Part shown: piece by piece, positions 1,975 through 8,757 of the stretch | Numbering within the stretch: the first letter of the stretch is position 1 | Layout: each line of letters begins with the position of its first letter | Assembly (NCBI GenBank): GCA_964400275.1 | Contig: CAYNSS010000001.1 | Span: forward strand, 558,839 to 622,838 | DNA from: an uncultured Pseudomonadota bacterium | GTDB taxonomy: Bacteria > Babelota > Babeliae > Babelales > Chromulinivoraceae | DNA length: 64,000 nt | Direction of reading: 5' to 3' | Position numbers and translations under genes: made by a program | The notes under the pieces: generated by a model | The model's input: only the letters and a program-made list of their open reading frames with translations | Told to the model about the DNA's origin: nothing | Databases searched by the model: none

Positions 1975-2005
1975 AAAATAGATATTTTTTAGGGGAGTAT
2001 ACGTT

Positions 2006-2605
2006 ATGATAGATAAAAGATTTATAGCGATTTTTTTGTTGATGTTTATTTTCACAGGAATTAGTTCATATCTTGTTTGGAAGTTATTTATTCTTGAAAA
2101 AAAAATAGAGCAACAAGAAGATGGTGAGCCATGCGCGTATAAAGAAATAGATTTTATATTACCAGTACAAGCTTTTTTGAAGCGTTGTGCGTCGTCTGAT
2201 CAACTTTCATATGTGCGTCGTTTATTTGTAAATCAATGGATTTCTTCTAATCAGCAAGATCTTGCTTCTTTAATTATGTATGCACAAGGTGCTACTAATT
2301 ATCAGGATCTTAAAAAAGCGTTTATGATAGGCATTGAAAAAGAGTCGCAAAGAGCAGCGGCTGCTTCTTTTATTGTTTCAGCAATTAAAACTATTGATGA
2401 AGATTCAAAACTTGTAGAGCATGTAACAAGATCACTTAAAGAAGGATATGGACCAAATATTCTTGCACTGCGTGGTCAAATGATGCAATTGGATATTGAT
2501 ACTAAAGAGTATAAAAAACTTCGTATTGAATATAAAAAAGAGCTTGATAAATGGATCAATGAAAAACATGGAGAATTATTGGATGAAATTATAGCAAAGA
2601 TGTAA
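2006..2605 (+). CDS. hypothetical membrane-anchored protein
   Basis: 199-aa ORF with N-terminal TM helix (FIAIFLLMFIFTGISSYLVW). No motif recognised. Confidence 0.5.
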   Translation: MIDKRFIAIFLLMFIFTGISSYLVWKLFILEKKIEQQEDGEPCAYKEIDFILPVQAFLKRCASSDQLSYVRRLFVNQWISSNQQDLASLIMYAQGATNYQDLKKAFMIGIEKESQRAAAASFIVSAIKTIDEDSKLVEHVTRSLKEGYGPNILALRGQMMQLDIDTKEYKKLRIEYKKELDKWINEKHGELLDEIIAKM

Positions 2606-2741
2606 TTATGTAGATTCAAGTAGATTTAATTTTTTTGTTAGCTTTTTTAAGTTGTTAGCCAAGAACTTGAAGGGCTAGTAACTATATGTTAGTTTTGGGC
2701 TGTTGATTTTAATTTTTTTTATAAAAAAAGAGAGAGTGAGT

Positions 2742-5096
2742 ATGAAGCGATTATTTATATGGACTTTTATATCTTTATTATACTTTATAGACGTTAAAAG
2801 TTCAGAAGCGTTAAGTAAAGAGCGCGTAACAGATTTAGTTATTTTTAATGATGCTCAAGAGCTTATACGCTTATCAGATTCTCCAGATAATATTAATCAA
2901 TTACAAAAAGCTATAATTAATAATTTTATCGCAGCGTTACTTGAGGAACAATTAATATTAGCTACAAAGTCACTATGGGTATCTTTTCAAAATATGGAAA
3001 CAATTTGGCAAGATTATACAGCTTTATCTACTGAAGAAATAAAAAATAAGTATCAGCCTAGGGATAATAACATTGAAAAAGTATCCAAAATAATGAAAGA
3101 AGTAGAGGATTATTATCAGCAAATAGAAAAGGATATTCGTGAGGGAAAAAAGGAATCTGAAATTAAAGATTTTTTAACAAAAATTCCTAATAAAAATAAT
3201 TATGCTGAAATTACAGCAATTTTTCAAGCGCATTGCTTGTATCAAATAATAATTTCTTATGATTATATTTGCAAAGATTTAGGTAATTTTATTTTGTTTA
3301 TTCCAAAAGAGTTAACTTTGAAAAGTGGTAATGATAAAGAAAAAAATATATTTATAGGATTATCTTATACTGAGTTACCGGATTTTGAGTATAAAGAAGA
3401 GTTGTCAATAAGCAATCAGGTAGATATCTTTAGTAAAATTGAGCAAATTCGTAACAATGAAAAATTAGGCGAAGAACTTTTAAATGTTTTAAAAAGGCTT
3501 ATTGTTAATAAGTCTATTTTGAATCATTATCCTAAAGCCGAATTGTCAAGTTTTAATATTATTATAAATGGGCATGGCAGTGAGGAGCTTGTTGCAGAAA
3601 TTTCTATGAAATTATATGATAATTTACAAACTAAAAAGAAAACATCTGATGTATTGCAACTTTTAAATTTTTTAAATAGTTCATTGATTAAAACTAAATC
3701 TTTATTAATATCATCATGTTTTTCGGGGGGTAAAAAAATTCGTGATATTATAAAATCTTCTTTAGATAATCCTTTTGTTATAGGTGATCCATCTAAGAAA
3801 AATTATTTATTTTGGAATAATTTTTTTGAATCTATAAAGTATTCCATTATTGCGGTTGGGGCATTTTATGCTCCATCTGTCGGTTTATTAAAAAAAGCAT
3901 TGTTTACATTTAAGGATGAAAATTTTGCTATTTATAATAATCATTACATTACAAAAGATGTAAAGGATAGATTGATCTTGAAAAAATACTTTCAGTATTT
4001 AAATGAAATTCCAGTTAAGTACAAAGAAGCAGCAAGATTATTTTTTTTTGAGGAGATCAATTTTGAGAATTTGGCAAGTATTAAGCTGCCAAATCTTGGC
4101 TGGTTTGTTCCTATAGAAATGACGATGAAAGGTGACAAAAATCAAGATACTGCAAATATATATTCAATTTCACAGATTGAAGCCCTCTTTAAAAAAGAAT
4201 TTACAATTGAAAAAGCCAAGAGAATATGGTTAAAAGCTAATTATGTAGACAAAATAAATATTCCAAAAGCATATTATAGTTTACCAAAATTCTTCTTAGT
4301 AAGTAATAATCAAAATTATGTTATTGAAGAAATAATAGCTCCTGATTTTATTTTATATAATGAAACAGCATCATTAGATACATCATTTTTTTCCGTTATT
4401 AAAAGTTTTCTTAGTGTGTCAGAAATTCTTGAACCAATTAATGTTGTTATTAAATCTTTAAAAACAAAAGATTATAGTTTTAAAAATATTTATATCTTTA
4501 TTTATAAGAACGATGTATGGATCCATGGTGATGGTAATTATAGAAATGGGTATATTTATACAGATGATAAGGGAAATACAAAAATTGCTTCATGGTTAAA
4601 TAGTGATAGTAAGGCTATATTTAATAAACAACAAGAAAATGATTATTCTTCTGAGATATCTGGTGAATATATAAGCTATGTTGAAAAAGAAGTTAAAAAA
4701 GAATTAGAGCAGTATGGAGATTATAAAAAAATTGAAAATCTTTATGGAAAAAATTATCCAAGTCATCTTAAAAAACAAATAATAAAAAGACAAAATTTAT
4801 TGAAAGAAGCAAAGCAAATAAAGAATGATAGTGATCCAAGGTTTAAGAGAAGTGAAACAAAAAAACAACCATATACCATAGAACATGTTATTAAAGGCTT
4901 AGATCTTGCACGTGCAGCTTTTTTCAAAAAATCAGAAAGAAAAGTTCAAGGTGTTCAGAATAATATACAAGAAATTATTAAAGTCTTAGATCTTGCACGT
5001 GCAACTGTTGTCCAAAAATCAGAAAGAAACATTCAAGATGCTCAGACTGTAGCTCGGGCATTAAATTTATCATATGCTGTTAAGCATGGTTTTTAA
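2742..5096 (+). CDS. large secreted protein, paralog A (candidate clan-CD-like cysteine peptidase fold)
   Basis: Start moved from track TTG 2703 to ATG 2742 (GAGAGAG upstream; signal peptide MKRLFIWTFISLLYFIDVKSSEA). Collinear with 5427..7886. FNIIINGHG (His codon 3573), then 48 aa, then SLLISSCFSGG (Cys codon 3717). Confidence 0.75.
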   Translation: MKRLFIWTFISLLYFIDVKSSEALSKERVTDLVIFNDAQELIRLSDSPDNINQLQKAIINNFIAALLEEQLILATKSLWVSFQNMETIWQDYTALSTEEIKNKYQPRDNNIEKVSKIMKEVEDYYQQIEKDIREGKKESEIKDFLTKIPNKNNYAEITAIFQAHCLYQIIISYDYICKDLGNFILFIPKELTLKSGNDKEKNIFIGLSYTELPDFEYKEELSISNQVDIFSKIEQIRNNEKLGEELLNVLKRLIVNKSILNHYPKAELSSFNIIINGHGSEELVAEISMKLYDNLQTKKKTSDVLQLLNFLNSSLIKTKSLLISSCFSGGKKIRDIIKSSLDNPFVIGDPSKKNYLFWNNFFESIKYSIIAVGAFYAPSVGLLKKALFTFKDENFAIYNNHYITKDVKDRLILKKYFQYLNEIPVKYKEAARLFFFEEINFENLASIKLPNLGWFVPIEMTMKGDKNQDTANIYSISQIEALFKKEFTIEKAKRIWLKANYVDKINIPKAYYSLPKFFLVSNNQNYVIEEIIAPDFILYNETASLDTSFFSVIKSFLSVSEILEPINVVIKSLKTKDYSFKNIYIFIYKNDVWIHGDGNYRNGYIYTDDKGNTKIASWLNSDSKAIFNKQQENDYSSEISGEYISYVEKEVKKELEQYGDYKKIENLYGKNYPSHLKKQIIKRQNLLKEAKQIKNDSDPRFKRSETKKQPYTIEHVIKGLDLARAAFFKKSERKVQGVQNNIQEIIKVLDLARATVVQKSERNIQDAQTVARALNLSYAVKHGF
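4887..5081 (+). repeat. in-frame tandem repeats at the 3' end of paralog A (29 aa, 25 aa and a partial unit)
   Basis: VIKGLDLARAAFFKKSERKVQGVQ / IIKVLDLARATVVQKSERNIQDAQ / VARALNLSYAV. Nucleotide repeat ttagatcttgcacgtgca occurs twice. Confidence 0.8.
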
Positions 5097-5125
5097 AATA
5101 TAAAAAATAGATCATTGTAAAAAAT

Positions 5126-5170
5126 AATAGCCATCATGATGTTTTAATATCATGATGGCTATTATTTTTT
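5126..5170 (+). terminator. rho-independent terminator of paralog A
   Basis: 15-bp stem aatagccatcatgat / atcatgatggctatt, followed by ATTTTTT. Confidence 0.8.
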
Positions 5171-5251
5171 ATGAGAATATTGACTTTTTAAATGTAAAAA
5201 AACTAGAGAATAGGTAGGTAGTTTTTGTTTTGTTGGCTTTAAGGGGAAGCT

Positions 5252-5372
5252 GTGAACAGATTAGGGTTATCGATAATAATATTTATTATAATTGCTTTAA
5301 GCATAAGGCTTTGAATTAAAAAAGATAAACCATTATCAATATTAGGTAAAACGCAGTGTATTTTTGATGTAG
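5252..5372 (+). pseudogene. duplicated, truncated 5' fragment of the ftsQ-like gene
   Basis: About 90% identical to 8038..8158, offset 2786 nt. GTG AAC AGA TTA GGG... reads VNRLGLSIIIFIIIALSIRL then TGA at 5312..5314. The same upstream sequence (aaaaaactagagaataggtaggtag...) precedes both copies. Confidence 0.8.
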
Positions 5373-5426
5373 ATGATCAGTTTGTGTGCGAATATTAAAA
5401 AAACTGATCTTATAAAGGAAAGTAGT

Positions 5427-7886
5427 ATGAATAAATTATTATTATTTGGATTATGTGCGCTTGGCATTATAAGCATACAAACATCAAATCAAGTAATTGA
5501 TAAACCAATTAGAAATTTAATTATTTTTAATGATGTTATCGAGAAAATGCATACATGGGATTTATTGGAAAAAATAGAACCAGAGAGCGCAGCTATTATT
5601 CGTGAATTTATAATTAGTTTGCTTGAAAAGCAGTTAGTACTTGTTACCAAATCATTATGGACTTCATTTCAAAATATTATACAAGCATGGAATAATTATA
5701 AAATGTTATCAGTAGATGAATTAAGAGAAAATTATATTACAGGTCTTAAGAAGGCAGGATTTGAAGATGCAGAAATAGATAAATATGCATTGGCAGATGA
5801 CTATATAAAATCGATGAAAATCGCAATTCTTACAATTGATAAACATTATCAAGCTATACAGAAGAAAATTACTAATAGATCAGAAGTTTTAGAATATTTA
5901 AAAAATATACCAGAAGAAGATAAAATAGAAGAGGTAGCACAACTTTTTGTAGCATATTATATTTATCAAATAATTTTATCGCATGATTACATCTGCAAAG
6001 AAGTAAACAATGAATTTATTATATTTATTCCTAAGGATATAACTTTAGCAAGTGGTAAGGATGAAAAAAAAGATATTTTTTTAGGGTTGTCATATACGAA
6101 ATTAAATGATTTTGACTATGGTACAAAATTATCTGATGATCAGGTTGATAAAATTTTTAATGATGCAAATGATATAATGTATAGTAATGCTTTAGGCCAA
6201 AAACTATTAGATGCATTAAATATCCTTAAAGTTAATAAATCTGATACAAATATATTAAAAAATCCTCAATTGCCATTTTTTAATATATTTATATCTGGGC
6301 ATGGTGATGATGTAATTACTTCAGAAATTTCTATAACTTTATCACAAGATCATAGAATCAAAGAACAGAAATCAGATATGTTACAAATTTTAAAGTTTTT
6401 TAATAATAGTATAAAAACTAAATCTTTAGCATTTGTATCTTGTTATCCAGGAGGCAAAAAATTCGTAGATACTTTTGATATTAAGCATCCACTTTCTAAT
6501 AGAGCATTAGAGTCTATTACATATCCAATTCTTTTTATGGGATCATTTTATGCCGAAACATTTAATACACTTATTTCTGATGCTCCATTTAAAGATTTAG
6601 ATTTTGTAGTATTTAATAATGCATTTTATGCTCCAAAAAGTTTACAAAGTATATTGTTTTGGAATCAATATTTTGATTTTATGAATCAACAACCAGTTGA
6701 GTATAAAAAAGCAGCAGAATTAATCTTTTTTAAAGAAGATACAGGATCAGAAGCTAATTTAGCAAGTTTTAAAAAACCAAATACTGCATGGTTTATACCA
6801 GTTGAATTTGAAAGTAAAAAGGTAGATCAATCATTTTTATCAATTTCTCAAATCTATGCCTTAACTCATGATCAAATTGTAGTTCCATCAAGATTAGATT
6901 TAAAACGTATATGGTTGCAAGCTAATTATGTACATACTATAAAATTTCCAAAAAGATCTTCTGTTCTATATGAATCTAAAGATGATGTATATGAATCTGC
7001 TGATAAGTTTAAAAAAATAAATGCTTTTCCTTATGTTTTTCCAATGAATTATCATAATCAAAATTATATAATTGAAAAAATTGAAGCGCCAGATCTTGTG
7101 CTTAATGATGAAAAATCAGAATTGGATTCTAGTTTGCATCAATTTATAGAAATCTTTTTTCCTGTTTATAAAATAAAAGAGCCTATTAAAATAGTTATTA
7201 AAAAGCTTATTACGAAAAATTATAATTTTAAAAATATATATATTTTTAGATATATTAAAAAGAAAGAGCTTTTTGGTGATCTTGCTACTTCTTTAGATAT
7301 TTCAAATGAAGATGAATATGAAGATGGATATATTTATACAGATACTAAAACAAAAGAAACAAAAATTGTTTTATGGCCTTATGATAAATATCATCCACTT
7401 TTTGAAAAAGAGTACCAAAAAGAGTTTGAAGAATATAAAAAAGAAAAATCAGACCTATCAGAAGAAGAAATAAAAGCATTAATGGATCAAGATGGAAGAG
7501 TTCAATTTAAAGAAGAAAATTTTGATGTATCTAAAAATGAATCATTTATTTCGTCTATAGAAGTACATTTAAAAAATATATTAGAACAATCAGTTGGTTA
7601 TAAAAATATTGAAAAAGCGTTACAAAAGAGCAAACAGGAATTTAAGGTACATAAAAAAGACGATAAAAGAGATTTAAAAGTAGTCAGTAGAGCTTTAGAT
7701 CTTGCACAAGCAGTGATTATCCAAAAAAATAAAAGGAATTTAAAAGTAGTCAGTAGGGCTTTAGATCTTGCACAAGCAGTGACTATGGAAAAAAATAAAA
7801 GAGAAGCAGAATTTTTTTTACAAAAATCAAAAATTGTAGCTCGAACATTAGATCTAGCCTATACGCTTAATAATTCTAACAATTAA
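5427..7886 (+). CDS. large secreted protein, paralog B (candidate clan-CD-like cysteine peptidase fold)
   Basis: Start moved from track ATG 5373 to ATG 5427 (AAAGGAAAG upstream; signal peptide MNKLLLFGLCALGIISIQT). FNIFISGHG (His codon 6300), then 47 aa, then SLAFVSCYPGG (Cys codon 6441). Confidence 0.75.
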   Translation: MNKLLLFGLCALGIISIQTSNQVIDKPIRNLIIFNDVIEKMHTWDLLEKIEPESAAIIREFIISLLEKQLVLVTKSLWTSFQNIIQAWNNYKMLSVDELRENYITGLKKAGFEDAEIDKYALADDYIKSMKIAILTIDKHYQAIQKKITNRSEVLEYLKNIPEEDKIEEVAQLFVAYYIYQIILSHDYICKEVNNEFIIFIPKDITLASGKDEKKDIFLGLSYTKLNDFDYGTKLSDDQVDKIFNDANDIMYSNALGQKLLDALNILKVNKSDTNILKNPQLPFFNIFISGHGDDVITSEISITLSQDHRIKEQKSDMLQILKFFNNSIKTKSLAFVSCYPGGKKFVDTFDIKHPLSNRALESITYPILFMGSFYAETFNTLISDAPFKDLDFVVFNNAFYAPKSLQSILFWNQYFDFMNQQPVEYKKAAELIFFKEDTGSEANLASFKKPNTAWFIPVEFESKKVDQSFLSISQIYALTHDQIVVPSRLDLKRIWLQANYVHTIKFPKRSSVLYESKDDVYESADKFKKINAFPYVFPMNYHNQNYIIEKIEAPDLVLNDEKSELDSSLHQFIEIFFPVYKIKEPIKIVIKKLITKNYNFKNIYIFRYIKKKELFGDLATSLDISNEDEYEDGYIYTDTKTKETKIVLWPYDKYHPLFEKEYQKEFEEYKKEKSDLSEEEIKALMDQDGRVQFKEENFDVSKNESFISSIEVHLKNILEQSVGYKNIEKALQKSKQEFKVHKKDDKRDLKVVSRALDLAQAVIIQKNKRNLKVVSRALDLAQAVTMEKNKREAEFFLQKSKIVARTLDLAYTLNNSNN
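7672..7870 (+). repeat. in-frame 66-nt tandem repeat (2 near-perfect units plus 1 degenerate) at the 3' end of paralog B
   Basis: LKVVSRALDLAQAVIIQKNKRN / LKVVSRALDLAQAVTMEKNKRE / IVARTLDLAYTL. Units start at 7672 and 7738. Confidence 0.85.
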
Positions 7887-7911
7887 AATTGATAGATGTT
7901 TTTAATTTTAT

Positions 7912-7956
7912 AATCCCTATTATGATGGTCCTTTATCATGATGGGGATTATTTTTT
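7912..7956 (+). terminator. rho-independent terminator of paralog B
   Basis: Stem aatccctattatgatg / catgatggggatt with G-U pairs, then T6. Homologous to the 5126 hairpin. Confidence 0.7.
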
Positions 7957-8037
7957 ATAGGATTATTGACTTTTTAAGTGTAAAAAAACTAGAGAATAGG
8001 TAGGTAGTTTTTGTTTTGTTGGCTTTAAGGGGAAGCT

Positions 8038-8757
8038 GTGAACAGATTAGGGTTATCGATAATAATATTTATTATAATTGCTTTGAGCATAATGTTTTGG
8101 ATTAAAAAAGATAAACCATTATCAACATTACATATAACGCAATGTATTTTAGACGTTGATAATCAATTTGCTCCTGAATATCAAAAAAAAATAGTTGATG
8201 TTATTAAGGATAGTTATAAAAACAGTAAAAATCCTGAAGATGTAATTCAAAAAGCAGTTCGAGAATTTGTTGAGATTCATGATATGAAAGCAGAAATATG
8301 TGGAGCAGATTCAATCTGTTTTCATGCATATGGGTTTAAGCCAATATTTATATTGGGTGATAATAAGGTTGTCGTTGATAATGGATTAACTTTTGAAAAG
8401 AAAAACTTTGATGTAGATAGCGTAACTGGATTACCTAAGATTATTTCTCAAAAAAATGATCAAGTTACTACCATGATTCATTTTATACAGTCAATACCAA
8501 CTGAAGTTATTCAAAAATACAGTATAGATTGGCTTGATAAAAATTATATCGTTTTAAGATCCAAAAAACATGAAGGAATGAAGTGCTTGGTATCGGATAT
8601 TTTAATTCCAAATGAAAAAATATTTAAAGAGTGTTCGTTGTTATATGATTTAGATTTGCAAAAATTACCAAAAAAGAAACAAAACAAACATATGGTGGAG
8701 TATGACATAAGATTTAAAAATCAAATTATTGTAAGGTCCGGGGGGAACTATGGCTAA
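8038..8757 (+). CDS. ftsQ: cell-division protein FtsQ/DivIB-like
   Basis: GTG start, single N-terminal TM helix, about 240 aa. Lies immediately upstream of ftsA and overlaps it by 8 nt. Call rests mainly on synteny. Confidence 0.5.
   Translation: MNRLGLSIIIFIIIALSIMFWIKKDKPLSTLHITQCILDVDNQFAPEYQKKIVDVIKDSYKNSKNPEDVIQKAVREFVEIHDMKAEICGADSICFHAYGFKPIFILGDNKVVVDNGLTFEKKNFDVDSVTGLPKIISQKNDQVTTMIHFIQSIPTEVIQKYSIDWLDKNYIVLRSKKHEGMKCLVSDILIPNEKIFKECSLLYDLDLQKLPKKKQNKHMVEYDIRFKNQIIVRSGGNYG

Follow-up and report, generated by a model that had tools for sequence, protein, structure and literature searches.

Two adjacent genes in the window studied here (the whole stretch of 64,000 nucleotides, positions 558,839 to 622,838 of contig CAYNSS010000001.1, from an uncultured bacterium of the Babelota) raise the question of what their products do, and whether the histidine and the cysteine that both carry could form an active site. 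The initial annotation had described the pair, called gene 1 and gene 2 below, as secreted ORFan paralogs with a caspase/legumain-style His/Cys dyad, possibly a highly diverged family of clan-CD-like proteases. We find that they belong to a new, uncharacterised family of exported proteins of the Dependentiae, probably enzymatic, in which the conservation of a single His/Cys pair is far beyond chance. That these proteins are exported, modular and fast-evolving thiol hydrolases, probably peptidases with an active site like that of clan CD, is a reading to which we give about an even chance; clan CD membership itself is a reasonable hypothesis for which every homology test failed.

The gene pair and its family

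Both genes were taken from the list of open reading frames (ORFs):

2742..5096, + strand: gene 1, 784 amino acids; signal peptide, His/Cys domain, beta-rich domain and helical tail
5427..7886, + strand: gene 2, 819 amino acids; architecture as in gene 1

The initial annotation was right about the layout of the pair: the genes are adjacent, on the same strand and collinear from end to end, with 36% amino acid identity over 849 columns (BLASTP, E 7e-138), and all of the shared blocks that it quoted are present (KSLW.SFQN, YQII.S.DYICK, IF.GLSYT, KRIWL.ANYV, QNY.IE..APD, EPI..VIK.L.TK.Y.FKNIYIF and GYIYTD). Its GHG and S-C-x-x-GG motifs are also found as described, FNIIINGHG and SLLISSCFSGG in gene 1 and FNIFISGHG and SLAFVSCYPGG in gene 2, and the positions that it gave for the His codons (3573-3575 in gene 1, 6300-6302 in gene 2) and the Cys codons (3717-3719 and 6441-6443) are correct, as is the spacing of 47-48 residues: 48 in gene 1 (H278/C326) and 47 in gene 2 (H292/C339). 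The products are identical to the public proteins P0001 and P0003, which score 616 and 639 bits, respectively, against the family hidden Markov model (HMM).

The label "ORFan", on the other hand, has to be abandoned. An exhaustive HMMER search over 1.8 billion cluster representatives recovered 70 homologous clusters (at 50% identity) with E<=1e-3, 52 with E<=1e-10 and 24 with E<=1e-30. A search of this kind was needed because low-complexity words saturate word-indexed searches, which returned 2-3 relatives only, even with a profile. Most of the matching family members are 650-900 amino acids long, and wherever a member is assigned to a named organism, that organism is one of Candidatus Babeliales, an order within Candidatus Babelota, alias Dependentiae. 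Among full-length relatives, each of the two genes is closest to the other (protein identity 36-39%), and the family HMM found no third copy in the 64-kb window.

The two residues pass a check that the initial annotation had set for its own proposal, their conservation among homologs. In a 64-member alignment the sole invariant positions are His278 (61/61), Gly279 (61/61) and Cys326 (60/60; gene 1 numbering), surrounded by the well-conserved Asn272 (59/60), Gly277 (58/61), Ser325 (53/60) and Gly330 (57/61). A second conserved group, Asn36 (56/58), Asp37 (52/58) and Glu40 (47/58, with Asp in a further 9), follows the first strand, and Phe417, Pro450, Trp454 and Tyr526 are also well conserved. 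Across the family, the His-to-Cys spacing has a median of 44 residues and extremes of 35 and 79, and about 10 distant homologs have a deletion of the hairpin segment between the His strand and the following helix.

Predicted structure, export and a possible active site

Structures were modelled using AlphaFold2 with the family alignment. The full-length gene 1 model has a predicted local distance difference test score (pLDDT) of 83.5 and a predicted template modelling score (pTM) of 0.81; for residues 25-470 of gene 2 the values are 89.4 and 0.92. The predicted architecture opens with a signal-peptide helix and continues with a domain of about 450 residues, a beta-rich domain of about 150 amino acids (approximately 473-630) and a variable helical tail of low confidence; helical or coiled segments make up much of each protein, as judged from the gene 1 model. 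The elements of interest are as follows:

2826..2861, + strand: first conserved strand and following loop of gene 1 (VTDLVIFNDAQE); strand at residues 29-35 in the model, candidate beta1/L1 element
3549..3578, + strand: gene 1 strand FNIIING, then His278-Gly279; strand at residues 270-276 in the model
3690..3731, + strand: gene 1 strand KSLLISS, then Cys326 and F-S-G-G; strand at residues 317-324 in the model, preceded by helix 303-311
6279..6305, + strand: gene 2 strand FNIFISG, then His-Gly; strand at residues 261-267 of the domain model
6417..6455, + strand: gene 2 strand SLAFVS, then Cys and Y-P-G-G; strand at residues 308-314 of the domain model, preceded by helix 294-304
4158..4631, + strand: gene 1, second (beta-rich) domain at about residues 473-630; strands between residues 473 and 619, pLDDT mostly above 90, with the family-conserved Y526, E564 and Y606

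In the gene 1 model, the order around the dyad is strand 270-276, GHG, a hairpin (292-294/299-301), helix 303-311, strand 317-324 and SC, and beyond the cysteine come helix 331-340 and strand 368-372. The gene 2 domain has its elements in the same order, with the hairpin at 283-285/290-292. As had been anticipated from the sequence, each dyad residue is predicted to follow a beta-strand: in both models, His and Cys each sit at the C-terminal end of a strand, the two strands being consecutive in one beta-alpha-beta unit, with the invariant glycine beside His, and the domain that holds them is embedded in a larger, modular protein. About 190 residues, mostly helical, are inserted in the domain, so that the second strand leads into the insertion and the insertion into the His strand.

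This arrangement resembles that of the clan CD cysteine peptidases (C14, caspases and metacaspases; C13, legumain/GPI8; C11, clostripain-like; C25, gingipains; C50, separase; C80, MARTX/TcdB CPD). Their caspase-hemoglobinase fold is built on a central sheet of order 2-1-3-4-5-6 with five helices; the catalytic His and Cys lie where beta3 and beta4 end on the C-terminal side, beta3 and alpha3 are separated by a small sheet, L5 carries an aromatic residue and a glycine beside the catalytic histidine is conserved in every family (PMC4357240). In the models presented here, His likewise comes before Cys at the C-terminal ends of consecutive strands with one helix between them, and a small hairpin is predicted between the His strand and that helix in both proteins. 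The glycine neighbours of His are invariant (G279) or nearly so (G277). The spacing (median 44; 48 and 47 in this pair) falls inside the clan range, being 42 in caspase-7, 46 in PmC11 and 49 in MARTX-CPD (His91/Cys140) (PMC4357240). At the motif level, the dyad regions recall SGHG/DSCHSG of metacaspases, IIINN/LLSHG/QACRG of caspase-3 and FTDHGS/EACESGS of legumain. The differences are the mostly helical insertion before the His strand and the extra conserved beta-rich domain after the dyad domain; the linear order of the predicted secondary structure would be compatible with clan CD if those approximately 190 residues are an insertion.

Two clan CD families serve as further comparisons. C11 peptidases, such as PmC11 and a secreted Bacteroides thetaiotaomicron enzyme (PDB 6n9j), are similar in having an extended sheet and a C-terminal domain, and the annotated secreted proteases of Chromulinavorax, a member of the Dependentiae, include C11 peptidases (PMC6561590). 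The C80 enzymes (MARTX-CPD and the TcdA/TcdB CPD) also hold a His/Cys dyad domain inside a larger, exported, host-directed and modular protein, and the strands that end in their dyad residues are the homologs of beta3 and beta4 (PMC4357240). However, homology to C80 was not found, nothing points to activation by inositol hexakisphosphate (InsP6) or to autoprocessing, and the dyad domain in the present family is N-terminal and much larger.

The signal peptides of both proteins, claimed by the initial annotation, were recovered by a hydrophobicity heuristic:

2742..2804, + strand: gene 1, predicted Sec-type signal peptide (MKRLFIWTFISLLYFIDVKSS) with approximate cleavage site; mean Kyte-Doolittle value of 2.15 over the hydrophobic 12-mer at residue 5

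Both N-termini open with M-K/N-K/R, after which come a hydrophobic stretch and small residues. The feature is common to nearly all full-length homologs, which begin with M-K/R and a hydrophobic 12-mer of mean Kyte-Doolittle value of about 1.8 or higher, and no lipobox is present.

The other ends of the proteins vary. HEAT repeats occur C-terminally in the homologs P0026, P0032 and P0040; ankyrin repeats occur in P0042, N-terminal to the dyad (residues 133-211). PAM2, a eukaryotic docking peptide for poly(A)-binding protein, was found at the extreme C-terminus of P0065 (residues 719-730, SNLNPYAKPFYP) and P0070 (671-682, SHLNPQAKPFVP), with a best Pfam E of 9e-8. The tails of genes 1 and 2 contain tandem repeats instead:

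4888..5046, + strand: tandem DNA repeat in the gene 1 helical tail, 87 nucleotides x 1.8; Tandem Repeats Finder score 255; (G/V)LDLARA helix motif
7663..7802, + strand: tandem DNA repeat in the gene 2 tail, 66 nucleotides x 2.1; Tandem Repeats Finder score 238; encodes NLKVVSRALDLAQAV twice

The repeated amphipathic helix ALDLA(R/Q)A is lineage-specific, being present only in genes 1 and 2 and in one close fragment (P0005). IQ (calmodulin-binding) motifs were also considered for the homolog tails and set aside as too weak a signal, with 6 proteins carrying them compared with 2.3 +/- 1.4 in shuffled sequences; IQ-like examples are P0006 758-768 and P0020 758-768 and 792-802 (e.g., IQSVGRGMKAR).

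Dependentiae are obligate intracellular parasites of protists, and the signal peptides, together with the HEAT, ankyrin and PAM2 modules of the homologs, suggest an action on the eukaryotic host. Members of the Babeliales that infect protists have been described, and in Chromulinavorax 44% of the coding sequences have signal peptides, a set enriched in proteins of unassigned function and in proteases (PMC6561590). A conserved enzyme-like domain joined to a variable tail is also what is seen in the modular effectors of intracellular bacteria, with their ankyrin repeats, HEAT repeats and linear motifs, and the Babeliales genes resemble those of such effectors in being accessory, fast-evolving and strain-variable; they differ in that export here is apparently via a classical Sec signal peptide.

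From the invariant His-Gly and Ser-Cys at neighbouring strand ends of an exported protein, we infer a thiol hydrolase. In the putative catalytic dyad, the Cys thiolate would act as the nucleophile and the His imidazole would serve as the general base; most probably the enzyme would be a cysteine endopeptidase whose active site follows the clan CD plan. In such a layout, His would follow "beta3" and Cys "beta4", and the hairpin after His may help to hold the substrate. The S1 pocket would be lined by Asn36, Asp37 and Glu40: Asn-Asp-x-x-Glu sits where clan CD enzymes have S1-pocket residues (L1/alpha1, PMC4357240), which predicts cleavage on the C-terminal side of a basic residue. The Sec system would export the protein, whose targets would be host proteins, with the variable C-terminal tail as a putative targeting module; the gene pair may be accessory and fast-evolving in the manner of host-interaction genes.

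The family matters for what it may say about widespread protist parasites in which almost half of the proteins carry signal peptides, most of them with no assigned function. It provides a concrete candidate for a host-directed enzyme, with an active-site hypothesis of only two residues, with confident models that resemble nothing solved and with relatives some of which bear eukaryote-specific docking motifs. Were it an active peptidase, the classification of cysteine peptidases would gain a family and perhaps a fold, and there would be a first biochemical handle on host manipulation by Dependentiae; were it a very remote member of clan CD, that clan would reach further than is now known.

Searches for relatives and competing explanations

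The proposal of a clan-CD-like protease stands in part: the local architecture of the models and the conserved His and Cys agree with it, whereas no sequence, profile or fold search links the family to the clan, with no similarity above background by any of the three. These results weigh against the peptidase reading. Pfam and NCBIfam searches at E<=10, made with both proteins, all 64 members, and consensus and core segments, returned only coiled-coil and low-complexity noise for the core; there was no Pfam match at that threshold to the clan CD families C14, C13, C11 (Peptidase_C11 itself included), C25, C50, C80 or CHAT. Sequence searches of the PDB at the same threshold, with a single protein and with the 64-member family profile, gave only polyQ and coiled-coil matches. 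Profile-profile comparison (hhalign) was performed against a self-built alignment of fungal metacaspases and against caspase-3 and legumain, whose sequences were verified against the PDB. The family profile matched the metacaspase alignment with a probability of 0.16%, on an irrelevant stretch. Core or insertion-deleted profiles scored 15.1-16.8 against the three enzymes, inside the range of 35 unrelated control proteins of the same window (13.3 +/- 2.5, maximum 20). The best paths pair His with His and Cys with Cys for all three enzymes, and the caspase-3 path also aligns the first strand (IIIND/IIINN) and the post-His helix (SDFLKILNFFN/VDLKKITNFFR), but we do not count these pairings as evidence because the scores equal those of the unrelated controls.

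Fold comparison gave a similar picture. Foldseek found no match below E 0.1 for the full gene 1 model in the PDB and BFVD, or for the gene 2 domain among 350,542 PDB chains, where no clan CD enzyme is among the 50 best matches; no caspase, legumain or gingipain is among the PDB matches listed. A single clan CD entry was returned, and for gene 1 only: the C11 peptidase 6n9j_B ranked fourth (E 0.23, probability 0.16), with 237 aligned columns, a target-normalised TM-score of 0.18 and a root-mean-square deviation of 11.6 A, which is not significant. The remaining points against the reading concern export, targeting and evolution: the signal peptides are called from hydrophobicity and not by SignalP; the eukaryote-type modules are found in a few homologs only and in neither gene 1 nor gene 2; and the ratio of nonsynonymous to synonymous substitution rates (dN/dS) of gene 1 against the close relative L002 (JGI metagenome 3300037311, contig Ga0394881_0006528, 5695-9640), approximately 0.56 compared with 0.06 for ftsA and 0.11 for ftsZ, may be inflated by the broken gene copy in L002. 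The Foldseek negatives weaken the clan CD reading, are no refutation of it and leave room for a new fold. The lack of a match is no proof of a new fold either, since an insertion of about 190 residues that splits the core makes a hard case for such a search.

A first alternative, which we hold only tentatively, is that the domain of about 450 residues is a cysteine hydrolase of unseen fold. It would represent a new peptidase family, perhaps even a new clan, exported by Dependentiae as a modular, host-targeting effector. The clan-CD-like arrangement of His and Cys would then have been reached independently or have diverged beyond recognition, and the tails may recruit the protein to host poly(A)-binding protein (through PAM2) or to HEAT- or ankyrin-binding partners.

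Somewhat doubtful, in our view, is an enzyme that uses the same Cys and His within a fold without solved relative for a chemistry other than peptide hydrolysis, again acting on host proteins; a deamidase, an acyl- or transglutaminase-type transferase, an isopeptidase for ubiquitin-like modifiers and a ligase with a thioester intermediate are candidates. The invariant His and Cys point to catalysis, profile similarity to clan CD does not exceed the controls, targeting-type homolog tails would fit host-directed enzymes of many chemistries, and a model with a pTM as high as 0.92 has no PDB match below the Foldseek threshold, as the full-length model has none in BFVD. Nevertheless, His followed by Cys at the strand ends of a beta-alpha-beta unit, with an adjacent invariant glycine, is the clan CD arrangement (PMC4357240). 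The order of the two residues in the family, moreover, differs from that of papain-like, OTU and transglutaminase enzymes, in which Cys comes first, and Foldseek is a weak guide to a new fold when the core is interrupted as it is here.

It is unlikely that His and Cys are non-catalytic, serving metal binding or holding the fold together in exported structural or adhesive proteins of the envelope or the host interface. Such a role could be argued from the large helical or coiled share of each protein and from the position of the genes beside the ftsA-ftsZ division cluster in this lineage, and the catalytic role is so far only predicted. However, one invariant His and one invariant Cys are too few ligands for a usual zinc site, and structural proteins usually conserve their core hydrophobic residues best, not a His-Gly and a Ser-Cys at strand ends. 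The adjacency to ftsA-ftsZ is not kept at four other loci, and the genes appear dispensable because gene 2 is missing, and gene 1 broken, in a close relative.

The weakest alternative is an enzyme of the alpha/beta-hydrolase type, in which HG would serve as oxyanion-hole motif and Cys would occupy a nucleophile elbow (S-C-x-x-G-G). The succession strand-HG, then strand-small-x-Cys-x-x-Gly-helix does resemble at the motif level the HG...GxCxGG pattern of alpha/beta hydrolases such as dienelactone hydrolase, but the motifs are separated by a single helix and a hairpin rather than by two beta-alpha units, this fold is very common in the PDB and yet no Foldseek match of that kind was obtained, and no conserved His or acid follows C326 to complete a nucleophile-acid-His triad (H278, the sole invariant His, lies upstream), which largely refutes the idea and makes it very improbable.

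The locus and its history

The window gene order, all on the + strand, is SpoU-type methyltransferase gene, 199-amino-acid ORF, gene 1, gene 2, 239-amino-acid ORF, ftsA, ftsZ and secA. ATG 2742, with GAGAGAGTGAG ahead of it, is the most likely start of gene 1. For gene 2 the most likely start is ATG 5427, because AAAGGAAAG precedes it and the signal peptide follows. The alternative ATG 5373 gives the longest ORF, the one in the ORF list, and is used in one public annotation (P0072, 837 amino acids); its 18 extra codons (5373-5426) fall within a dead copy of the neighbouring ORF. Strong terminator-like hairpins end both genes, which therefore look like separate transcription units; 6 terminator-like sites were found compared with 1.2 expected.

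5123..5166, + strand: terminator-like hairpin after gene 1; 20-bp stem and T-run
7910..7951, + strand: terminator-like hairpin after gene 2; 19-bp stem and T-run

Both genes have a GC content of 25-27% (window 2001-8000), against about 31% (29-36%) in the remaining window. A direct repeat of about 335 bp brackets gene 2, with copies that are 91% identical and include approximately 115 nucleotides at 100%:

5094..5430, + strand: direct repeat copy A; terminator, intergenic stretch and dead 5' copy of the 239-amino-acid ORF, reaching the start codon of gene 2
7884..8220, + strand: direct repeat copy B; terminator, intergenic stretch and intact 5' end of the 239-amino-acid ORF (8038-8757)

The dead fragment in copy A covers the first 58 or so codons, from GTG 5252, with a premature TGA at 5312-5314. 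The copies diverge by about 9%, which is below the synonymous distance to L002 (0.18-0.3). Since the flanks are far more alike than the genes (36-39% at the protein level), these data suggest that the paralogs are old while their present tandem arrangement, or at least the flanks, is recent. The tandem could have arisen by recombination via the shared flank or by gene conversion.

In L002, the flanks are 88-92% identical at the nucleotide level, the gene 1 ortholog is split into at least 4 ORFs and gene 2 is absent. Together with a gene 1 dN/dS well above those of ftsA and ftsZ and with the low GC content, this suggests that the pair is accessory and fast-evolving. The slot between the 199-amino-acid ORF and the ORF that precedes ftsA looks like a variable region for accessory genes. 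A metagenome scan with a 10-member subset of the alignment gave three single-copy loci. Each of four more distant loci has one copy of the family member, which does not adjoin ftsA-ftsZ. No gene neighbourhood is conserved among the loci compared, and the ftsA-ftsZ adjacency is specific to this lineage.

Two neighbours deserve mention in their own right. The 239-amino-acid ORF had no Pfam match and no POTRA or FtsQ domain at E<=0.01; it occupies the slot usual for ftsQ, directly upstream of ftsA and overlapping it, and has a hydrophobic N-terminal segment. In L002, an unrelated ORF of 473 amino acids, with no Pfam match, lies between the counterparts of the 199-amino-acid ORF and the pre-ftsA ORF, upstream of the gene 1 ortholog.

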